11,946 bases of DNA from a virus. Taxonomy: Duplodnaviria > Heunggongvirae > Uroviricota > Caudoviricetes. The position numbers and the translations under genes were made by a program. The stretch lies in the IMG/VR virus record IMGVR_UViG_2585427728_000004, one strand, 5' to 3'. The notes under the pieces are model-generated. The model saw only the letters and a program-made list of their open reading frames with translations, made no database searches and was not told the origin of the DNA. This document shows positions 1 to 11,946 of this stretch, one piece after another (positions within the stretch are counted from its first letter, which is position 1; each line of letters begins with the position of its first letter).

Positions 1-1368
1 TTACTTCACGGAATATTTTGCCACGGTCGCTTTCGCGCCATGCGCTAATAAAGACAAGTACGTTTCCGTCACTCTTGCAGTAAACAAACTATTGTCTGGC
101 AAATCATCACCAAAGATCGCCTTAATCGCCAGCAATGACTGGACGCGCGCTTTCCCTTCGTCACTACTTTGTACAGCCTTCTGAATAACAGGTAACAGTG
201 GGTCACTGATTTCTATCGGATTTCCCTGTTCATCAACACCACCGACATAACGCATCCAACCCGCGACGCCCAGCGCCAGCAGATCGAACTTGCTGTCATG
301 CGCCAGATGCCAGCGAACAGAATCCAACATCCGCTGTGGCAATTTCTGGCTACCATCCATCGCAATCTGCCAGGTTCGATGACGTAACGCCGGGTTGCTA
401 TAGCGTGCAATTAATCGGTTAGCGTAATCTTGCAAATCAACGCCCTGCACTTTCAACGTCGGCGCTTGTTCCTGCAACATCAAGCCATACGCCGCATAAC
501 GATATTGTTCATCTTCCATACAGTCATTAATGTGCTGATATCCTGCAAGATACCCCAGATACGCCAGGAATGAATGACTGCCGTTGAGCATGCGCAACTT
601 CATCTCTTCATAAGGCAGCACATCGCTAACCAGTTCGGCTCCCGCTTTTTCCCATTCCGGACGTCCGGCAACAAAGTTATCTTCTATTACCCACTGGCGG
701 AAAGGTTCACAGGCAACGCCCGCAGGATCGCCCACACCGGTAAGTTGTTCGATTTTCGCCAGCGTATCCTCTGTCACTGCGGGCACAATACGGTCCACCA
801 TTGTTGATGGGAAAGTCACGTTATCTTCGATCCATTGTGCCAGTTTTACATCAACGGCTTGTGCGTAGGAAGTGACAACGTCACGCATAACATGACCGTT
901 TTCTGGCATGTTGTCACATGACATGACGGTAAATGCGGGAAGTCCTGCCGCTTTACGGCGAGCCAGCGCCTCAACAATCACCCCTGTTGCTGTTTTCGGC
1001 TGGTGGGGATTTTGCACGTCGGCAGCGACCATCGGGTGATCGAGCATTAACTGTCCGGTCGCCGGAGAGTGGAAATACCCTTTTTCGGTGATTGTCAGAG
1101 AGACAATCGCAATTTGCGGTTCACACATCGCAGCCAGCACGGTTTCTAAGCCATCTATTTGTACGTGCAAGGCTTTTTTAACGACGCCAACGACGCGAGC
1201 CGTCCACGCGTCGGCCGACATTTCCGCAACGGTATAAAGATTATCTTGCTGTTGTAAATCGGCAATTTGCTGTTCGCCGCCGATTAAGTTGACCTCATAA
1301 TATCCCCAGTCACTGAAATGTTCCGTAGCAAGAATACAGAGTGCGTATGAGCGCCTGCAGAAGAAGTG
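1..1368 (-). pseudogene. ydfI: Mannitol dehydrogenase family oxidoreductase (UxuB/YdfI-like), 5'-truncated remnant; the ORF-track ORF 1..1221 is its internal-ATG portion
   Basis: The 406-aa ORF aligns with the UxuB family from about residue 85 to the C-terminus ([45 protein letters not shown]). My hand translation of the same frame upstream of the ATG at 1221 continues the homology ([16 protein letters not shown]) up to an in-frame stop at 1369-1371 with no start codon, so the N-terminal Rossmann region is missing. Symbol is inferred from the neighbouring Qin-like prophage. Confidence 0.6.
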
Positions 1369-1930
1369 TTAACACTGTATTTAGAATAATCAGATGCTCC
1401 ACTTCCCGGAGCACCACTGGAACCACCTGAAACAAATGTCATCGAATGGGTATGTGCACCGGCTGAAGCAGCCGTACCGCTAACACTATGGGTATGCGCC
1501 CCGGTGTTATTCGTGGATTTAGTGCCGTAATCAAACGACGATGTGGTTTTCGTACCCAAATCCGTACTGGATGCGCTGGCGCTGTGGGTGTGCGATTTAA
1601 TGCCGTCCTGTTCCTGAGACAATATGGCTCGACCACTGGCGGGCTTGCCCTTAATCGTCCAGCCACGCAAATCAGGGATCACGCCTGACGGATAAGCGGC
1701 AGCAAGTTTCGGGTAGGCAGATTTGTCAAAAGTCTGCCCCTGCATCAGGGCATAACCAGACGGAACGGTATCTGATGGCCACGGGATTGGTGCGCCGACT
1801 GGGTAGCTTTCTGGTGGAAGATTTTTCGAGGTATAAACTTCTGCCCAGTCTTCCTCAAAACCATAGCCATCTCTTGAAGAACGGTAGAACAGACCTCCAT
1901 TTCTGTAATGCGCCTTCATCTGCAGGGTCC
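1338..1930 (-). pseudogene. Side tail fiber protein C-terminal fragment (Stf/gp37-like tip with GAHTHS repeats), lacking its N-terminal part; approximate boundaries
   Basis: ORF 1284..2051 contains [12 protein letters not shown]...[34 protein letters not shown] followed by three GAHTHS repeats typical of lambda Stf/T4 gp37-type fiber tips. The first ~44 codons and last ~17 codons of that ORF are out-of-frame readings of terminase and ydfI DNA respectively. Confidence 0.55.
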
Positions 1931-3339
1931 GGCAACTTCCGACTCCGGTAGCTGGCCGGATCAATTCGCTGGCTCTCCCCGTCGCTGTCACCGCGCAATG
2001 ACTGCGTGATGTTGTAACGATCAATAATCCAGCGTTCGCCACGGCTGCCATAGCCCGTTACCTGAACCACAAAACGGCGATGACGTCCCGCCTGCACATC
2101 CACTGTCGCCACAAGGAAATTAACGCCATCCGGCACACTGCGGGAAGGAACTGGCTCTGCCCGCTGCTCAAGCAATTCACTTTTTCGTTGCTCCATGCTG
2201 GCGCGGGGAAGATAAGGTAATCCCCAGTCGGTATTGATAACCGTCTTGAGTGTCTCTTCACTTCCGGTTGTCTCGTATTCCTGTTCTGCAGTAAGCAGCT
2301 TGTAAACGAGTTGCGAGAGTGTCTGATAAGCAGCTGCCGGACCCTCCATCCAGAATGACGCAATACGTGAACGCCGGGGATCACCATAACGACTGCCATC
2401 TGCATTGATGGATTCACCATCCCGTAACCAGACCCCACGTCCGTTCAGCTCGCGTTTTTGTTCAGGCAAAATCCGTCCTGAACAGGAAGGACACTGAATA
2501 TAAGCCGCCTCACTTGCCAGCACAGGATCGGCAATATCACGGAAACCAGCAACCACATCGCCGCAGGGCTGAAAATACTCACCACAGTGTGGACAGGGCC
2601 AGTACCAGCGACGGCGATCGCCACGGTTATAGAGCGACAGGATCCCCGTGGTTGGTGGAGCCTCATGCGGTGAAGTCCGTCGCCATTTCACATCCTTCAC
2701 ATCCCTGCCGGGGGAACTCTCCACCAGCGTCATACCACTGGACATAAATGTGGTGGTACGTTTTGAGGCAAGAGAGAAGGCATCCCCCTCACCATCAATA
2801 TCTTCCGGAAAACGGTCATAATCCGTCAGCGCCACGCATTTATAATCTGATGAAGACATGATATTGACTGACGGCCAGCCGATTTTCAGGTAGTTGCCAG
2901 CAAGGAATGTTCTGTCATAAACGTTGTTGTCATTTTTGTTCGGACTCAGGCGACTGACCACTTCCGGGCTGACGCGAAACGTTCTGGCGAGTCGTTTTTT
3001 GGAGTGTTCGCGGGCTTTTTCCTCCGTCATCTGAATGATCAGCATATCAGCAGGATCGCAAATCACGTTGTAAATCACCCAGCCGTCAATCAGGCCGATA
3101 GTCTTGCCGGTTCGTGCCGGGCCAACAAATATCACTGCGTCGTATTCACGCGAGGCCAGGCAGTTCATAGGCTCAATAACATACGGTGCCACCAGCGGAT
3201 CCCACGGGACTGAGTTCCCTGCCCCCATGGGCACCCGCATATACTGAGCAACGGCATCAGCAACCCGCATTCGTCTCGGTGCGCGAAGGATATAACCTGA
3301 ATCGGTTCGTGCTGCCTTTGCGGTTTCCTGATTCAGCAT
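1855..3339 (-). CDS. Phage terminase large subunit (lambda GpA family), C-terminally truncated and fused into tail-fiber DNA; probably non-functional
   Basis: 494-aa ORF with Walker-A-like GPARTGKT, the CPHCGE motif and a WIIDRYNI segment matching the lambda gpA nuclease-domain region. Lambda gpA is about 640 aa; homology ends near residue 465 and the frame then runs through tail-fiber sequence to a stop. The start ATG overlaps the upstream stop (TAATG). Confidence 0.75.
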
Positions 3340-3833
3340 TACTCCTCCTGCTGTAATTCCTCCTCATCATCCGCACCTGCTTCAGTCACCCGCAGGGCTA
3401 TCTGATCGCGCAGATCATCAATAATGGACTGAACACGGCTCACAGCGTCAGGCTGCAGACCGCAGTCACGTTCAAGAATATCCGGTAATGTCTCCAGCAC
3501 CTGCACGACCGCTTTTGCCCAGATGGCAAACTCCCGTCTGACATCACTGGCCGGAATGAGTTGTGCCGTTTCCTGTTCGAACTTAAGACGCTCACGTTCA
3601 GACTGATACCAGGCTTTGCGCTCATGCGCGTCCATTTCGCCTTCTGCAACCGGCGGTGGTAATGCCAGAAATGCCGACACAATATCAACCACCCGATAAA
3701 GCTTGAGGTTGCTTTCATGCCCCCCTGCAACGGGTAGATTTTGCAGCCTTGCCGCAGCAGTCTGGCGATGTACACCTGACAATGCCGCCAGTTGACTGAT
3801 ATTCAGCGTCAGATTTTTTAACTCTCGATCCAT
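3339..3833 (-). CDS. nohA: Terminase small subunit / DNA-packaging protein (Nu1/NohA-like)
   Basis: 164-aa ORF directly upstream of and overlapping the terminase large subunit gene; N-terminal HTH-like LNISQLAALSGVHRQTAAARL and an acidic C-terminus; a cos-like sequence lies ~190 bp upstream, as in lambda. Confidence 0.75.
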   Translation of the reverse strand: MDRELKNLTLNISQLAALSGVHRQTAAARLQNLPVAGGHESNLKLYRVVDIVSAFLALPPPVAEGEMDAHERKAWYQSERERLKFEQETAQLIPASDVRREFAIWAKAVVQVLETLPDILERDCGLQPDAVSRVQSIIDDLRDQIALRVTEAGADDEEELQQEE

Positions 3834-3989
3834 ACCCGCTCCAGAATGTTTTAAACATGCATCTTGCGAACAACTTTAGGCAAACGGTGTTAGTGATGAA
3901 CAAAAAACAATCAGAATCGACACCATAAAAATAAAACAACTGTAATATCAATCAATTACAGTAGTGGTGATGACGAATAAAATTTCAAA

Positions 3990-4045
3990 AACTAGCCTTT
4001 TTCCGCGACGCTCCCGCCCCGTGGCAGGGACCCCCACTGGGAGGA
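3990..4045. other. cos (cohesive-end) site of lambdoid prophage; cosN-like 12-mer at 4008..4019, read on the minus strand as GGGCGGGAGCGT
   Basis: Minus-strand sequence TCGGGTCCTCCCAGTGGGGGTCCCTGCCACG|GGGCGGGAGCGTCGCGGAAAAAGGCTAGTTTTTGAAATTTT resembles the remembered lambda ends (right end ...ACGGGTCCTTTCCGGTGATCCGACAGGTTACG, left end GGGCGGCGACCTCGCGGGTTTTCGCTATTTATGAAAATTTTCC). Distance to the terminase small subunit start (~190 bp) matches lambda cosN to Nu1. Confidence 0.55.
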
Positions 4046-4385
4046 CCCGACAGCCTGACAACCGTGACGAGCATCTGAAACAGAGCTTTACATAATGGCA
4101 TGGGGATAATTCAGAAGGACATCACAGCATGCCCACACAAATTAGTGTGAGTGTCCTGTTTCTTACTACGCGCAGGACTGACGAGCATGAGGGGAAAATA
4201 CGCGAACCGAAATGCCTTATCTTCAGAAATGCAGCCGGCATCCGAACTGGACGATATTGTAAATTCACCTAAATACGAGGCATTGCTGTAGTTGAATTGC
4301 AGTACTGTATTAGCCTTACAGTGACAGAATACGATATTGACTCTGTCACTTGTGAAATGGTCAGAATGGTTAGCAGTTATGGTGA

Positions 4386-4592
4386 TCAGTCAACCACCAG
4401 GGAATAATCCTTCGTATTCTTATCGTGCTTTACTAACGCGGCCTCAATTGCCCTGAATGCTTCCAGAGATACTTGATGTTCTATACATGCAATTACAACA
4501 TCCGGGTAACCCATCGAAATGGTGCTATTAAGCATAGTTTTTACACGAACCTGCTCCTGGGACGGGGCATCAGTGTATTGATCTTTATGCAT
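4386..4592 (-). CDS. Small prophage protein of unknown function (YbcW/YnfO-like, 68 aa)
   Basis: 68-aa ORF with GGAG Shine-Dalgarno ~8 nt upstream of the ATG; size and position (between the packaging genes and the lysis region) match the small DLP12/Qin ORFs of this type. Confidence 0.5.
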
Positions 4593-4794
4593 TTTGTCGC
4601 TCCATTCGTTTGCTCTTCACTTGCGGCTAAAAATATAACGTCAAATCACTCAGCATGAAAGAGTGAAAGTTTCAGCGCGTTTCCCTTACATAATCTGTCG
4701 TTTGTATTCTCTTCAGGCATACCGGAAAGACTAGGTATTGTCACACAACCAATACCATCGACAATCGAGATTTATATCTATTCGGTAATGTTTA

Positions 4795-4825
4795 AATATA
4801 ACAAAACCCCGTAAAAACGAGGTTT
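4795..4825 (-). terminator. Candidate intrinsic terminator downstream of gnsB
   Basis: Minus-strand RNA AAACCUCG-UUUUUA-CGGGGUUU (8-bp stem including one G-U pair) followed by a U-rich run; found by eye, not energy-scored. Confidence 0.35.
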
Positions 4826-4887
4826 ATGGGTAATTTGTATTGTTGAATAGCATCTGATGAGAAATTGATGCTAATACTATAAACATG

Positions 4888-5061
4888 CTAGATTAAATCA
4901 ATCTTGATATCATAGCTTTCAAGACCAGTCATTTTTTCCCGTGCAGTAAACTGGATACTGGTAACTTCTTTCCCGGTCTTTTTCTTAAGCTCAATGATTT
5001 TTTTTGTTATATATTCAGAAATATCTGCTTCTGTTTTTGTTTTTAACTCTTCAATGTTCAT
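4888..5061 (-). CDS. gnsB: GnsA/GnsB family protein (57 aa)
   Basis: MNIEELKTKTEADISEYITKKIIELKKKTGKEVTSIQFTAREKMTGLESYDIKIDLI closely matches the GnsA/GnsB family. AGAGGA Shine-Dalgarno precedes two adjacent ATGs (5064 and 5061); the ORF-track N-terminal extension to 5154 is probably not translated. Confidence 0.8.
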   Translation of the reverse strand: MNIEELKTKTEADISEYITKKIIELKKKTGKEVTSIQFTAREKMTGLESYDIKIDLI

Positions 5062-5233
5062 CATTTCCTCTTTTAGTCTGTTATGACTGTCCTGGTACAC
5101 AGTAGTGTCAATTATATGGAGCAAACGTATAAAAGATAAGATGAAACATCGCAATAATCAACATACGACGGTCTAAATTTCACACAAACAGATAAAGATG
5201 ATTATCATTTATTATCAATGCATTAGAATCAAA

Positions 5234-5389
5234 TCAATTCAAGAGTCTCATTGCTGCTTCCAGAATTTCTTCTGAAGTTACATGTCGATCCGCTGCTACA
5301 TAAATGACTTTATGATCTCCGGTCAGAGATGGAAACCCTGCAGCCATTACAGTGAGGTGTGTTGTTTCGCCATTTGGATATTCACGCAT
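5234..5389 (-). CDS. ynfN: Qin-prophage-type small protein YnfN-like (51 aa from MREYPNG; upstream in-frame starts at 5410 and 5464 also possible)
   Basis: ORF 5234..5503; the 51-aa version starting at MREYPNGETTHL has GGAG upstream and matches the length I remember for K-12 YnfN. A terminator-like hairpin at 5507..5530 argues against the longest start. Confidence 0.55.
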   Translation of the reverse strand: MREYPNGETTHLTVMAAGFPSLTGDHKVIYVAADRHVTSEEILEAAMRLLN

Positions 5390-5506
5390 GATGGTGTTAA
5401 CTCCGGTCATCACTGGCACTACCATTGCTGGTTCAGAGTTAAAAAAAACTATTATTTTTTTCATAATGTTACCGTAATATGTGAGTATCCATCGACTAGA
5501 CACTAA

Positions 5507-5530
5507 GCAAAAAAGCTCCCGAAGGAGCCT
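5507..5530 (-). terminator. Candidate intrinsic terminator downstream of cspI (GC stem with UUCG tetraloop and U6 tract on the minus strand)
   Basis: Plus strand aaaaaaGCTCCcgaaGGAGCcttcatttt; on the minus strand GGCUCC-UUCG-GGAGCU is followed by UUUUUU. A U-rich run also follows on the plus strand, so it may be bidirectional. Confidence 0.4.
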
Positions 5531-5735
5531 TCATTTTCACTTTCTTAAATCTAACGACAGATGGCTAACATTTAAGTATTGTGAAATATTATCAAATGTA
5601 ATCATCATTGATTTACAAAAGATACATTTTGCCCCGAAAGGATTTCTGTCAGAAACATCAAAAGATGATGTTCTATACTGAGAACCATGGCAACACGGGC
5701 ATCTAAAGTGAATATGGTTTGTAATATTTTCTACC

Positions 5736-5948
5736 TCAAAGTGCCACTACATGAACAGCTGCAGGGCCTTTAGGTCCGTTCTCAATACCAAATTCGACTT
5801 CCTGATTCTCAGTTAACGTTTTGAAATCGTTGCTCTGAATAGCTGAGAAATGCACAAACACATCTTTGCTACCATCTTTCGGCGTGATGAAACCAAAACC
5901 TTTTTCAGGGTTAAACCATTTCACTAAACCAGTCATTTTGTTAGACAT
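5736..5948 (-). CDS. cspI: Cold shock protein CspA family (70 aa), CspI-like
   Basis: [70 protein letters not shown] carries the RNP1/RNP2 motifs (KGFGFI, VFVHF) of cold shock proteins; AAGG Shine-Dalgarno and a long AT-rich leader lie upstream. Confidence 0.9.
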
Positions 5949-6311
5949 CATTATTACCTTTTGAAGAAGTTAGCCCTTGGGCAGAATGGTCCGAAAAAAA
6001 ATATCAGAAAGAAAAACCAACAAGGAAATCTCAAGAGGTACAAATAATAAAATTATAACAATGACTGCTTCAGATAATTTTGTAACAAACCAGAACACCA
6101 TTAACGCATGATTAACCAACCATAGCAAGGATTACTTTTGTAAAGAAAAACACACGAATGAAACAATAGCTTTATTTATTAATAAAACGTGTCATTCTGT
6201 CTAATGACCTTTTATCTTACCCTTAAGATTTCAAGGATTTTGACTCATGGAAGAGTCCTTTTTATTTAAATTTCACATTCAGCGCTAAAAATAATCCGAT
6301 TTAATATTAAT

Positions 6312-7334
<1,023 letters not shown>

Positions 7335-7338
<4 letters not shown>

Positions 7339-7646
7339 AGATATTTATGATGAGGACGCTCGTGCTTATTGGCAGGATTTTCAATCTTAAAGGAGTACTG
7401 ATGCTGCAGATAAGACTCAACTTTTTCTGACAATTTTTCTGCTACTTCCAGGAAGACTTGCCGGACGCTCATTCTGGCTGCTGCCTCATAAAACTCCAGC
7501 ACAGCTCCTTCAACACGGTCCATGGCGACATCCAGGCCAAAAATTTCACCGTCAAAGCGTTCTTTGTCCTGTAAGGCTACAGTTACCGTAACTTTATTCT
7601 CAAAATTACGGACTCCTTTCACAACCAGTTCATAGTCTTGAGTCAT
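7335..7646 (-). CDS. ydfR: YdfR-like protein (DUF1327), unknown function, embedded in the lysis cassette
   Basis: 103-aa ORF with strong GAGGAGAG Shine-Dalgarno, start 4 nt after the holin stop; its stop overlaps the endolysin ATG (ATGA). Confidence 0.75.
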
Positions 7647-7650
7647 TGGA

Positions 7651-7866
7651 TTACTCTCCTCTCGCAGCCTTACGCCTGTCTTCTTTAATCTTGAAATAAA
7701 GATTTGTCAGATACGTCAGCATGCCAAATACCAGACTACCCAATACACCTATTGCCGCCCACTGTGAGGGCGTGACTTTATCGAGCAACTGTAAAAACCA
7801 GTAGCCAGCACTGCCTGCAGAGGTGCTGTAGGCGATGCCCGTTGTTAACTTATCCATGGATTTCAT
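7651..7866 (-). CDS. essQ: Pinholin, phage 21 S21-like class II holin with dual-start motif (71 aa)
   Basis: [71 protein letters not shown] has two transmembrane segments and a charged C-terminus; GGAGGTGA Shine-Dalgarno upstream. The ORF-track extension to 7950 is read-through. Confidence 0.85.
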
Positions 7867-7954
7867 AGCCTCACCTCCGCAGATAACGGATGGTGTACAC
7901 GGTTTGGTTCGAAGAAGGAAAGAAGTTACATTAGCGTAAGGCCCGAACATCTAT

Positions 7955-8056: not shown

Positions 8057-8770
8057 CTAAGAAAATCTTGATAAATATTGGTGCGGAGGCACACCAAAAT
8101 ATCCTCTAAAAACACTTACAAAATATGATGCATTGTCATACCCGCATATTCCCGCCACCTTGCCGACAGTATGGTTACTGTAGATCAATAATCTTTGCGC
8201 CATCATCATTCGTTCTTCAAGAATTAATTTACTAAACGATAATCCTTCGTCTTTTAATTTTCTTTTTAACAAACTCTCGCTCATATATAATCTTGAAGAT
8301 ATATCACAAAGTCTCCATGACGCAGAGATATCCGAGTGAATAATAGCCTTAACTTTACAACCTAAGCTATTAAGACTTCCGAACAAAAAACTTTGCACTA
8401 TTTTCTCTGAAGATAAGACAGCAAGACATGCAAGTGATATTTGATTTCTAACTACATCCACGGTTTTGCTATCACAATTCAAGCATGCAACCAAGTTCTT
8501 TAACAATGAAAAATCTTCACATTCTACTATCAAGTATGACGGATAAAACCTTCTTACAGAAAAAGGTGAGAGTGTGTAGTTTTTAAAGAAATCATTAACT
8601 GTTTTCTCCTCAACATCTACGATCATTAGATGATCTGTATTTGACGAAAAAAGATCTTTTAAATTGTATTCAATGAGGACAGCATTTCCTTTTTTAAACA
8701 AAATATCTTCTTTACCAATTCGGACACCAAACGAGTTCAACACCAAAATGATAGAACATATGTATGGCAT
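8057..8770 (-). CDS. AraC/XylS-family transcriptional regulator (AppY/Rns-like size class, 237 aa from the ATG at 8770)
   Basis: C-terminal double HTH typical of AraC family (LLKRKLKDEGLSFSKLILEERMMMAQRLL...VGKVAGICGYDNASYFVSVFRGYFGVPPHQY). AGGTGG Shine-Dalgarno 5 nt before the ATG at 8770; the ORF-track start at 8779 is GTG. The gene and its ~400-bp upstream region are visibly AT-rich. Confidence 0.85.
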   Translation of the reverse strand: MPYICSIILVLNSFGVRIGKEDILFKKGNAVLIEYNLKDLFSSNTDHLMIVDVEEKTVNDFFKNYTLSPFSVRRFYPSYLIVECEDFSLLKNLVACLNCDSKTVDVVRNQISLACLAVLSSEKIVQSFLFGSLNSLGCKVKAIIHSDISASWRLCDISSRLYMSESLLKRKLKDEGLSFSKLILEERMMMAQRLLIYSNHTVGKVAGICGYDNASYFVSVFRGYFGVPPHQYLSRFS

Positions 8771-9176
8771 ATTATCCACCTGATATCATTGGGGTTACAC
8801 CAGGTAAGTATAGGTGGAAAATCAATATTCGCCAGTTCAACAATAAGGAAAATCTCATTGCATCACAACTATAAAACCATGTGTTTAACTCACAAAAAAC
8901 AAATCATTAAACTAATCTGTTATATTATAATAGCTGCGTGCAATAATAATATTATATGCTCTTAATATTCACTTGAAATATCTTCATATAAAAACAGATT
9001 GAATAAAATCTTTTGGGGCTGGTATGTTTACCAACATTAAATTGCATCTCAATGTTTTCTTTAGCGTGAACAGGATTTTTATAAAAACTGACACTATGAG
9101 CATCATAGCGTAGTTTTTACGATTGTAAATATCCTGCATACAGGAACTCATCACTTTCAGATGATATCGCATACAG
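8771..9176 (-). promoter_or_regulatory. AT-rich leader/promoter region of the AraC-family gene; candidate nucleoid-protein (H-NS-type) silencing target
   Basis: About 400 bp of very AT-rich non-coding DNA between two minus-strand genes. The only ORF here (8984..9172) is low-complexity with no ribosome-binding site. No specific promoter hexamers assigned. Confidence 0.3.
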
Positions 9177-10136
9177 TTAATTCACCATCAGTCTTAGAGC
9201 CAGTTCTTCCGGATAGGGATCGAAGTAGTTCTGTGTAAGCAAGTAATCATTAGGATACTCACCCAGATAATGCTTCAGCAGAGTCAACGGCGCAAGAAGA
9301 GGCAATGTGCCAAAGCGATAGTTAAGTATAACCTCGCTCAACTCTTTACGCTGGCGTGTACTTAAGTAATTACTAAAATACCCCTGTATATGCATCAGCA
9401 CATTCGTGTGATTTTTACGTGATGCTGGTTTTCTGAGAATCGCCATCAGATTATCACGATACACCTCAAAGTATGATTCAAGGTCCGCCCACTCGTGTAT
9501 TGCAGCCACAAATGGTCCCATATCTTTATAGCCTGCCTGGCTATGCGCCAACAACTGAAGCTTATAACGACTATGAAAAGCTAATAACTCTCTTCTTGAT
9601 AATTTCTCCTTGTAAAGGTGATTGAGCTCATGCAAAGCAAAAACTCTTTCAATAAAATTCTCACGAAGCACTGGATCATGTAATCGCCCATCCTCTTCAA
9701 CCGGTAGCCAGGAAAACTTTTCCATCAAAGTGCTCGTAAATAGTCCCACTCCATCTTTACGACCTCGATTACCATTTTCATCATAGACACGCACGCGCTC
9801 CATGCCACAGCTGGGAGATTTAGCACAAACCACAAACCCCGATACATCCTTTAATTTGTCCATATAAGAACGACTAAACTCTGTCATTCTCTCTGTCACA
9901 TCCTCATTCTGGTCGTGGCTGAAACACATCCGTATATTTCCTTGCTTCGAGCGCACAAGTCGTAGAGCAGGACGCGGAACTGGCAGCCCTATAGCCATTT
10001 CCGGACATACTGGTCTGAATGTTACCCATTCCACTAATTTGTCCATTAAAAAGTCATCTCTTTTGTGACCACCATCAAAACGAACAGCAGAACCGCCCAA
10101 ACAACCGCTGATCCCAATCACAGGTTTTTTTATCAT
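9177..10136 (-). CDS. DUF523/DUF1722 fusion protein (TudS-like putative [4Fe-4S] thionucleobase desulfidase with YbgA-like domain)
   Basis: N-terminal MIKKPVIGISGCLGGSAVRFDGGHKRD with three spaced cysteines (GISGC, PVCPE, SPSCG) as in DUF523/TudS; the C-terminal half resembles DUF1722 (YbgA). Strong GGGGGAGGAA Shine-Dalgarno 4 nt upstream of the ATG. Confidence 0.8.
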   Translation of the reverse strand: MIKKPVIGISGCLGGSAVRFDGGHKRDDFLMDKLVEWVTFRPVCPEMAIGLPVPRPALRLVRSKQGNIRMCFSHDQNEDVTERMTEFSRSYMDKLKDVSGFVVCAKSPSCGMERVRVYDENGNRGRKDGVGLFTSTLMEKFSWLPVEEDGRLHDPVLRENFIERVFALHELNHLYKEKLSRRELLAFHSRYKLQLLAHSQAGYKDMGPFVAAIHEWADLESYFEVYRDNLMAILRKPASRKNHTNVLMHIQGYFSNYLSTRQRKELSEVILNYRFGTLPLLAPLTLLKHYLGEYPNDYLLTQNYFDPYPEELALRLMVN

Positions 10137-10328
10137 TTCCTCCCCCTTGACTAATTCATTAACACATAAACTTTGTAGTGCACGGACTAAATTGCCTTTC
10201 TGGCTTCATCACTGACAATTTTTCTGTTATTGACTATTCCTAATATAGTAGGAAAGTTCTTTAAGTGATCGGTCGTACTCATCTATCTTTCATACTTACT
10301 CTCAACTATCAAAAGTACAGGATTTATT
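10137..10328. promoter_or_regulatory. Divergent intergenic region between the DUF523/DUF1722 gene and the lipocalin gene; presumed to hold both promoters
   Basis: 192-bp gap between divergently oriented starts; contains TTGACT- and TATAGT-like hexamers but no confident -35/-10 pairing by eye. Confidence 0.3.
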
Positions 10329-10853
10329 ATGAAGTTATGGCCTGTGTTGACTGGCATTGCACTCTCTTTCACTCTTATAGCATGTAAGGCCCCGACACCA
10401 CCTAAAGGTGTGCAGCCGATTACAAATTTTGACGCCAACCGCTACCTCGGAAAATGGTATGAAATAGCTCGCCTCGAGAACTGGTTCGAACGTGGTCTGG
10501 AACAGGTCAGCGCTACTTATGAAAAACGGAACGACGGAGGGATTCGCGTACTTAACCGTGGATACGATCCAACGAAAAACAAATGGAGCGAGAGCGAAGG
10601 TAAAGCATACTTTACTGGAGATACTAAAACTGCAGCGTTGAAAGTTTCGTTTTTTGGCCCCTTCTATGGTGGCTATAATGTAATCAAACTGGATGATGAG
10701 TATAAGTATGCTCTTGTCAGTGGTCCGAACAGAGAATACCTATGGATTCTGGCAAGGACCCAAACTATTCCAGATAATGTAAAAGCAGACTATGTGCGTA
10801 CCGCTCAAAAGTTGGGATTCAATGTCAATGAACTATTATGGGTTAAACAATAA
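10329..10853 (+). CDS. Bacterial lipocalin Blc-like outer-membrane lipoprotein (174 aa)
   Basis: Signal peptide with LIAC lipobox (MKLWPVLTGIALSFTLIAC), then Blc motifs NFDANRYLGKWYEIARLENWFERGLEQVSATY and GKAYFTGDTKTAALKVSFFGPFYGGYNVIKLD...YLWILARTQ. AGGA Shine-Dalgarno upstream. Only plus-strand gene in the window. Confidence 0.85.
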   Translation: MKLWPVLTGIALSFTLIACKAPTPPKGVQPITNFDANRYLGKWYEIARLENWFERGLEQVSATYEKRNDGGIRVLNRGYDPTKNKWSESEGKAYFTGDTKTAALKVSFFGPFYGGYNVIKLDDEYKYALVSGPNREYLWILARTQTIPDNVKADYVRTAQKLGFNVNELLWVKQ

Positions 10854-11403: not shown

Positions 11404-11946
11404 TTAGGCCAGCACACCAATTGCCAGCGCGCGATCGATAAATCGAAAAATCAGCTCCAGTTGGGAGCCATACTTCTCTTCAAATGCCACGGTATCCGTA
11501 TGCAACTCGTCGTGATGCTTTCTGCACAAAGGCAAAACAAAGAGATCATGTGCTTTGGTTCCCATTCCGCCCTGCCCGTGACCAATCAGATGATGCGGAT
11601 CGTCGGCTGGCATACCATATCGGTGAATAACGGTTTCGCTGTGATGATAATCGCCGTGTGGCCACTGGCAGGATTTAATATGGCGCAACAGCCAGTCAGA
11701 CAATGCACCAGCACCACCAGCAGCACGAATTACCCGTGCGTTACTGAAAAACGGCAGCAATGTTTTGTCTTCCACCAGCGGCTGGCGAACGGCAGGAACG
11801 ACCCCGGACGGCAGATTACGCATGCTTTTCGGTTCCGGCTCCACCAGTACCCGGGTATTGTGGAATACCGGCATGGATTCACGGCCCGGCTTAACGACCA
11901 CCAGCCCGAGTTCCGGTACCAGAACAGGTCGAAGTAATACCCGCAC
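11404..11946 (-). CDS. DUF968-family prophage protein (YdfU-like), C-terminal ~180 aa; gene continues beyond the window end
   Basis: ORF runs off the window edge; contains the HNH/zinc-like motif [28 protein letters not shown] and sits immediately upstream of Q as ydfU does in Qin. Confidence 0.6.

Follow-up and report, generated by a model that had tools for sequence, protein, structure and literature searches.

A tail-fibre remnant joined at a 3-bp microhomology to a 5'-truncated ydfI in a Qin-like prophage of one Escherichia coli lineage

The 11,946-nt stretch of DNA analysed here, referred to as the window, carries an exact junction at which a remnant of a lambdoid side-tail-fibre gene (stf') of a prophage is fused to ydfI, a host gene of the long-chain mannitol dehydrogenase family, which has lost its 5' end (Table 1). 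The junction was very probably created by an illegitimate-recombination deletion at the right end of a Qin-like prophage. The whole window matches at 100% the chromosomes of two E. coli strains, ET881 (NZ_CP100890.1), isolated from frog faeces in China, and SW071610, isolated from wastewater in the Galapagos. An earlier note on this DNA had proposed, from the sequence alone, that a deletion joins the tail-fibre remnant to a truncated ydfI and that the right end of the prophage was lost together with the 5' end of the host gene. Both proposals are borne out when the window is aligned with ydfI of K-12, with complete stf genes, and with prophages at this site that lack the deletion.

In ET881 the interval matching the window runs from ydfI' to a DUF968 gene within a defective prophage that is flanked by ydfZ-ydfI and int'-rspB, which is the site of the K-12 cryptic prophage Qin. 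The element is Qin-like in its location between ydfI/ydfJ and rspB, in the int' on its rspB side, and in its Qin-type lysis and cold-shock genes. It shares the ydfJ-rspB site and orientation with K-12 Qin, and window positions 4883-7895 are 94% identical in nucleotide sequence to the K-12 segment from gnsB to essQ (gnsB-cspI-rzpQ-rrrQ-ydfR-essQ). Furthermore, K-12 stfQ matches window positions 1471-1802 at 95%, and both prophages are defective and have a truncated tail-fibre gene to which a packaging gene is fused. No attR abutting a ydfJ' remnant is found; ydfJ' and the prophage end are missing, and stf' directly adjoins ydfI'.

Table 1. Features around the stf::ydfI junction, in window coordinates.
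Feature	Position	Strand	Evidence
ydfI' pseudogene remnant: last base of codon 42, codons 43-486 and stop	1..1336	-	K-12 alignment; PGAP; Pfam
Longest ORF with a start codon in ydfI', Met81-Lys486, 406 aa, without the first 80 YdfI residues	1..1221	-	ORF list; Pfam
ydfI DNA in tail-fibre frame: new C-terminal tail after V, stop 1286-1284	1284..1333	-	Codon listing; ORF 1284-2051
Deletion junction, 3-bp microhomology ATA (TAT on coding strand), no filler DNA	1334..1336	.	Three-way alignment of window, K-12 ydfI and HS30-1 stf; BLAST endpoints 1336 and 1334
Tail-fibre DNA in ydfI frame: stop 1371-1369, then 11 codons without a start codon	1337..1371	-	Codon listing
stf' remnant, approximately residues 899-1104 of the 1160-aa HS30-1 Stf	1334..1950	-	BLAST; Pfam; tblastn; PGAP
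"First" junction, terL' joined to stf'	1945-1950	-	Junction alignment
Terminase large subunit remnant, first ~466 of 700 codons	1945..3339	-	98.7% to phage mEp460 terL up to its coordinate 1915

The endpoints of the deletion were mapped by alignment to K-12 ydfI, which the earlier note had suggested as a check, and to intact stf genes. By BLAST, ydfI homology spans window positions 1-1336, at 99.25% identity to K-12 ydfI (L003 5454-6789). The stf homology spans 1334-1950; here HS30-1 stf is 98.5% identical and NRZ99027-2 stf' 97.2%. With E = 0 for the matches on either side of the junction, chance is ruled out. The three shared bases are themselves only weakly non-random, as about 5% of random joins have an overlap of at least 3 bp (estimated as (k+1)(1/4)^k(3/4)^2 summed for k>=3). 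With ATA as the only overlap, and with no extra bases, IS or recombinase site, the junction has the form of a microhomology-associated illegitimate deletion. Illegitimate recombination is the preferred mechanism because the parents share only 3 bp and the join contains no filler DNA, no invertase core, and no IS.

Two other routes to such a join leave recognizable marks. An insertion sequence could have caused an adjacent deletion and then been lost, as might be imagined from EC291, where an IS1 lies precisely where a truncated rspB meets a ydfI that is cut at a different point, and from the IS1, IS903, and IS26-like elements found in related remnants. The PGAP annotation of ET881 shows no IS element at the junction, however, and the parents abut with their 3-bp overlap, leaving no extra bases, IS end, or target duplication; since precise, traceless loss of an IS is rare, this route is highly improbable. 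Site-specific recombination, either by a Pin-type invertase acting on a fibre site and a ydfI pseudo-site or through aberrant Int/Xis excision, would be in keeping with the position of pinQ beside tfaQ-stfQ in K-12 Qin and NT1F34. Invertase crossover sites are located inside the tail-fibre genes of Mu, P1, and e14. Against this route, a hix/gix-like core (AAACCNNGGTTT, allowing up to two mismatches) is absent from window positions 1-2200 and from the parental stf genes of HS30-1 and NRZ99027-2, no invertase is encoded in strains with the matching stf 3' allele, ATA is all that the two breakpoints share, and the integrase remnant lies at the opposite prophage end, beside rspB in the ET881 annotation. 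It too is very improbable.

On the tail-fibre side, the ORF at 1284-2051 contains GAHTHS repeats and the Pfam domains Collar (E = 9e-13) and Phage_fiber (E = 5e-6), and it aligns by tblastn with residues 886-1104 of HS30-1 Stf at 94.5% amino acid identity. Missing from the remnant are ~900 residues at the N-terminus of the protein and 56 at its C-terminus, the latter corresponding to the last 170 nt (56 codons) of stf that are absent at the junction, and PGAP labels it "phage tail protein, missing N- and C-terminus". Intact HS30-1 Stf continues for 56 further residues with three more HxH repeats, and tfa directly follows the intact stf gene in HS30-1 and NRZ99027-2; neither these residues nor tfa are present in the window. 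Consequently, the GAHTHS repeat that had been taken for the last of the tail fibre is the last in the window but not in the intact gene, and the fibre is not joined at its 3' end, as had been stated, but is cut 56 codons before it. The description of about 17 out-of-frame codons after this repeat proved accurate: on the minus strand the ORF reads 17 codons and then the stop at 1286-1284. Tail-fibre DNA still supplies the V codon and the first base of the F codon, and the part read out of frame from ydfI amounts to ~16 2/3 codons. As a whole, the 255-aa "tail fibre" ORF is a chimera of three reading frames.

On the host side, 125 nt are missing from the 5' end of ydfI, comprising codons 1-41 and two bases of codon 42 (41 2/3 codons), and the start codon and all upstream DNA lie beyond the breakpoint and are missing as well. 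The remaining 444 codons contain no stop and no frameshift. The gene is identified as the ydfI orthologue by sequence identity and by its ydfZ-rspR-ydfG-dcp neighbours, with which those in ET881 agree, and PGAP annotates window positions 1-1335 as a ydfI pseudogene, "incomplete, missing N-terminus". Pfam recognizes a partial Mannitol_dh domain and Mannitol_dh_C. The 406-aa ORF retains positions 54-199 of the 199-position Mannitol_dh profile and misses positions 1-53, so that the N-terminal Rossmann domain expected of a complete YdfI (PF01232 with PF08125) is incomplete. YdfI residues 24-36, IVHLGFGAFHRAH, form the dinucleotide-binding motif IVHxGxGxFxRAH and fall entirely in the deleted part. 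This motif is conserved in the four matching solved homologues, 4im7 (YdfI itself), 1lj8, 7rk4, and 5itg, which are long-chain mannitol/sorbitol dehydrogenases. The NAD-binding fold, said in the earlier note to be deleted, has therefore lost only its first ~41 residues, including the Gly-rich motif, and profile positions 54-199 remain.

Starting from the stop at 1371-1369, the ydfI frame stays open all the way to position 1, with no in-frame ATG, GTG, or TTG ahead of the ATG at 1221. The frame upstream of 1221 had accordingly been described correctly as open and lacking a start, but the homology to ydfI that was thought to extend through it ends at 1336 (K-12 L003 6789). Immediately ahead of the ATG at 1221 (TTGCGGAAATG), the sequence has nothing more to offer than a GGA at a distance of one base from that ATG. 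The minus strand between 3922 and 1221 contains no promoter-like site, and promoter and terminator scans yielded no more than shuffled sequence. The remnant thus has neither the start codon nor the upstream signals of a translatable gene. From these features we infer that ydfI' and stf' are both dead genes; for ydfI' this follows from the absence of an in-frame start before Met81, of a good ribosome-binding site, and of a promoter-like site, together with the incomplete Rossmann domain. Transcription of ydfI' may still occur by read-through from the late genes of the prophage, as it lies downstream of them on the same strand. Among four ydfI alleles, six substitutions are unique to that of the window (four synonymous and two non-synonymous, H319Q and A434D), which are too few to date the event or to gauge selection.

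It is virtually ruled out that nothing was deleted and that the join reflects either a naturally short YdfI or a chimeric assembly. A natural isoform starting at Met81, the methionine encoded at 1221, is rejected on the grounds that 5357 of 5426 complete genomes (98.7%) keep the full 5' end of ydfI and that the crystallised protein (4im7) includes the N-terminal motif. These genomes and the lack of any in-frame upstream start dispose of both objections that the earlier note had raised against itself, namely a natural start at 1221 and an overlooked start upstream. As for a chimera, tail-fibre repeats do break short-read assemblies, and several contigs stop inside stf'. Nevertheless, two complete genomes sampled on different continents, at least seven further assemblies, and one metagenome contig all share the identical junction, which rules out an assembly artefact.

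Among the 5426 complete genomes, only ET881 and SW071610 carry the junction. In a larger assembly collection, gene callers report the 406-aa ORF in 98 blocks, and the exact junction 30-mer (CCGTAGCAAGAATACAGAGTGCGTATGAGC) is present in all seven of the further assemblies retrieved through this ORF. The host flanks of the retrieved assemblies differ from ET881 by 0-3 SNPs in 11.3 kb. The carriers are one clonal lineage that has inherited a single event vertically.

The nature of the lost segment is suggested by remnants at the same site that have not suffered this deletion. In K-12, NT1F34, and Ecol_224 the order is ydfI, ydfJ', a set of variable genes, tfaQ, stf', and the remnant of a packaging gene. 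The variable genes are ynfT-ydfK-pinQ in K-12 and NT1F34 and one hypothetical gene in Ecol_224, so that in K-12 Qin the full order reads ydfI-ydfJ'-ynfT-ydfK-pinQ-tfaQ-stfQ-nohA. K-12 retains tfaQ, pinQ, ydfK, attR, ydfJ', and an intact ydfI, all of which are missing or cut in the window. The stf 3' allele of K-12 is also different, and so is its packaging gene, the Nu1-type nohA; the corresponding genes of the window encode a DUF1441 small subunit and a terminase of the gpA type, like that of mEp460. NT1F34 and Ecol_224 are closer in architecture, sharing the same DUF1441-terL'::stf' arrangement at the same site. At the terminase junction Ecol_224 has the stf-side breakpoint of the window, and NT1F34 has the terL-side one. 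Unlike the window, they keep the stf 3' end, tfaQ, ydfJ', and the full ydfI, and their terminase alleles are only 75-77% identical to that of the window.

Measured between equivalent points in K-12, NT1F34, and Ecol_224, and with 170 nt of stf added, the gap amounts to 3.98-4.27 kb. Host DNA accounts for ~1.49 kb of it, made up of 125 nt of ydfI, an 88-nt spacer, and the ydfJ' remnant. These comparisons suggest that ~4.0-4.3 kb were lost, including the stf 3' end, tfa, right-end cargo, attR, the ydfJ' remnant, and the ydfI 5' end. No undeleted sister with the same stf 3' allele was found at the Qin site among the complete genomes and retrieved contigs, and the content and size of the deleted segment, as well as the choice between single and multiple events, consequently rest on analogy. 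The same applies to the invertase gene that the earlier note had placed in the lost segment: pinQ is present in NT1F34 and K-12, but there is no invertase gene in Ecol_224 or in the carriers of the matching stf allele.

The favoured course of events would begin with a Qin-like lambdoid prophage integrated in ydfJ, whose right end was hit by non-homologous recombination. One breakpoint fell 170 nt before the stf stop codon and the other at codon 42/43 of ydfI. The intervening DNA was lost; judging from the undeleted prophages, it would have comprised the last 56 codons of stf, tfa, any cargo, attR, ydfJ', the ydfJ-ydfI spacer carrying the start codon and upstream signals of ydfI, and 41 2/3 codons of ydfI. 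Loss of attR would have locked the prophage in the chromosome, as excision by Int/Xis would not be possible with attR in the lost segment, where lambdoid gene order places it.

Two or more successive deletions, for example one at the right end followed by later nibbling into ydfJ'/ydfI or stf, could have produced the same sequence. Stepwise loss does occur in such remnants: Ecol_224 has a terminase::stf junction of the window type from which another 110 nt, bounded by CCGGTA and CCGTTA repeats, are missing, and ydfI has been eroded independently in EC291. In the latter strain ydfI is likewise "missing N-terminus" and lies beside ydfZ-rspR, but the breakpoint is at K-12 L003 ~6726 rather than 6789, IS1 occupies the junction, and the deletion has taken the whole prophage along with the 3' end of rspB. 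The final sequence of the window fits one event or several, yet no intermediate state appears in the 5426 complete genomes or the retrieved assemblies, and a single event is more parsimonious. Successive deletions at the right end are thus considered unlikely.

The relative age of the stf::ydfI and terminase::stf junctions is informed by the metagenome contig ERZ1744489 NODE_215 (OOBI01000215.1; L013), which was found to carry the junction 30-mer in a scan of metagenome contigs. The contig is identical to the window over positions 1-1877 including the stf::ydfI junction, differs by SNPs at 1878, 1911, and 1925, and diverges at 1950. Beyond this point the contig carries stf at its full length (1120 aa), with Lom, J, I, K, L, and M encoded upstream of it. 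The stf::ydfI junction is therefore separable from the terminase::stf junction, since the contig has the former beside a full-length tail module. The converse arrangement, a terminase::stf junction without the stf::ydfI junction, was found neither in complete genomes nor among contigs read with the 494-aa ORF specific to the terminase junction. At the variable flank sites, with K-12 as outgroup, the contig is ancestral at all three and ET881 is derived at two, placing the contig on the root haplotype of the clade. On balance, the right-end deletion probably came first, in a largely intact prophage, and the loss of head and tail genes by the internal terminase-to-stf deletion would have followed. 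The designation of the stf::ydfI junction as the "second" in the earlier note holds in position only, as the evidence favours it as the older. The clustering of the three SNPs at 1878-1925, beside the other junction, suggests a recombination tract, and the contig could instead descend from a window-type remnant that was repaired by an incoming phage.

A broader reading of both junctions, which at present appears quite unlikely, would make the stf::ydfI deletion the founding, grounding lesion. It would have removed attR from an otherwise structurally complete lambdoid prophage, the state visible in the metagenome contig, with head and tail loss following later at a hotspot in the terminase gene. 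The hotspot part of this reading refers to mEp460 coordinate 1913-1915 (...CCGGTA/GCTGG), a breakpoint that recurs, joined to different partners, in at least three prophage remnants.

Prophages are reportedly grounded and domesticated by deletion of their attachment sites and structural genes. The window conforms to this pattern without mechanistic difference, as one lineage-restricted example: it would have lost attR along with structural genes and retains cargo and lysis genes, and its deletion reaches into flanking host DNA. The stf::ydfI junction is thus a genuine lineage-specific instance of how defective prophages are well known to erode along with the host DNA beside them. That both halves are partial pseudogenes is already recorded in RefSeq, and the significance of the junction beyond annotation and strain history is small.

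In terms of annotation, about 100 assemblies list a 406-aa "mannitol dehydrogenase" ORF that is in fact a fragment of a pseudogene. For strain history, the junction 30-mer is a clean marker of one E. coli clone that occurs in frog faeces, wastewater, and gut metagenomes. Taken with the ERZ1744489 contig, the window also provides a short natural series in which the decay of a Qin-like prophage can be followed step by step. The rspA-rspB-ydfJ-ydfI cluster is said to serve L-gulonate catabolism under the control of RspR, with YdfI reportedly acting as a fructuronate/mannonate oxidoreductase. The deletion removes one more gene from this sugar-acid cluster, which had already been split by the insertion of the prophage in ydfJ. 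Under the broader reading of both junctions, the recurrence of the terminase breakpoint would mark a spot in gpA-type terminase genes that is prone to breakage or recombination and influences how lambdoid prophages decay.

Within the clonal lineage of the complete E. coli genomes ET881 and SW071610, the prophage lysozyme gene rrrQ is split into two ORFs in some assemblies, while others carry a single intact 177-aa gene. Since both states occur in one lineage, the rrrQ frameshift is younger than the junction joining the side-tail-fibre remnant (stf') to ydfI. A terminator-like hairpin lies inside stf', and a scan of the region counted no more terminator-like sites around it than in shuffled sequence. 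An intact ydfI 5' end is missing in about 1% of complete genomes. E. coli EC291 has lost its whole Qin-site prophage, along with the ydfI 5' end and the rspB 3' end, through an IS1-bounded deletion that arose independently and has a ydfI breakpoint different from that of the window.

Features of the window and of the EC291 locus
Feature	Location	Strand	Remarks
Terminator-like hairpin	window 1393-1415	(-)	GGTGCTCCGGGAAGTGGAGCATC, then T-rich tail; inside stf', just upstream of the stf::ydfI junction
terminase::stf junction	window 1945-1950		compared with loci L008 (~10153), L006 (~9582), L005 (~9469-9478) and L004 (~9932)
rrrQ	window 6806-7338	(-)	frameshifted in ET881 and SW071610 (PGAP)
Cargo block	window 8057-10853		between Q antiterminator and lysis genes
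AraC-type HTH protein	window 8057-8770		cargo block
YbgA-like DUF523+DUF1722	window 9177-10136		cargo block
Blc-like lipocalin	window 10329-10853	opposite	cargo block
DUF968 gene	window 11404-11946	(-)	180 aa; intact protein (PGAP)
IS1-bounded deletion	L033 (EC291) 3765-6467

The cargo block of the window replaces what in K-12 Qin is the cspB/cspF region, and Ecol_224, an E. coli with a prophage remnant at the Qin site, likewise carries the YbgA-like and lipocalin genes. The DUF968 gene corresponds to K-12 ydfU minus 507 nt, an internal in-frame gap; window 11404-11616 matches 19256-19468, and window 11613-11946 matches 19972-20305, of the K-12 Qin region (L003). Just outside the window this gene adjoins a further incomplete gene and an integrase gene that is truncated, which places a third deletion junction there.

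Over positions 1-1950, the window and the ERZ1744489 contig (L013) differ at three positions (1878, 1911 and 1925), all three in the 48-nt stretch closest to the terminase::stf junction. Such clustering is more suggestive of a recombination tract than of a clean deletion.

Breakpoints are reused at the terminase::stf junction. In coordinates of phage mEp460, the terminase large subunit gene (terL) is cut at 1915 in the window, at 1914 in ETEC4073, whose prophage occupies a different site, and at 1913 in the Qin-site remnant of NT1F34, whose terL allele is only 77% identical; the tail-fibre position joined to terL differs in each of the three. The junction sequence is CCGGTA in the window and ETEC4073 and CGGTTA in NT1F34, with GCTGG/AGCTGG directly after. 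In Ecol_224 the stf-side breakpoint is that of the window, but the terL cut lies 110 nt deeper inside the gene, between the repeats CCGGTA and CCGTTA, and the junction reads CCGGTA|CCTG. Reuse of these breakpoints could reflect either a hotspot or a single old junction that has since been reshuffled.
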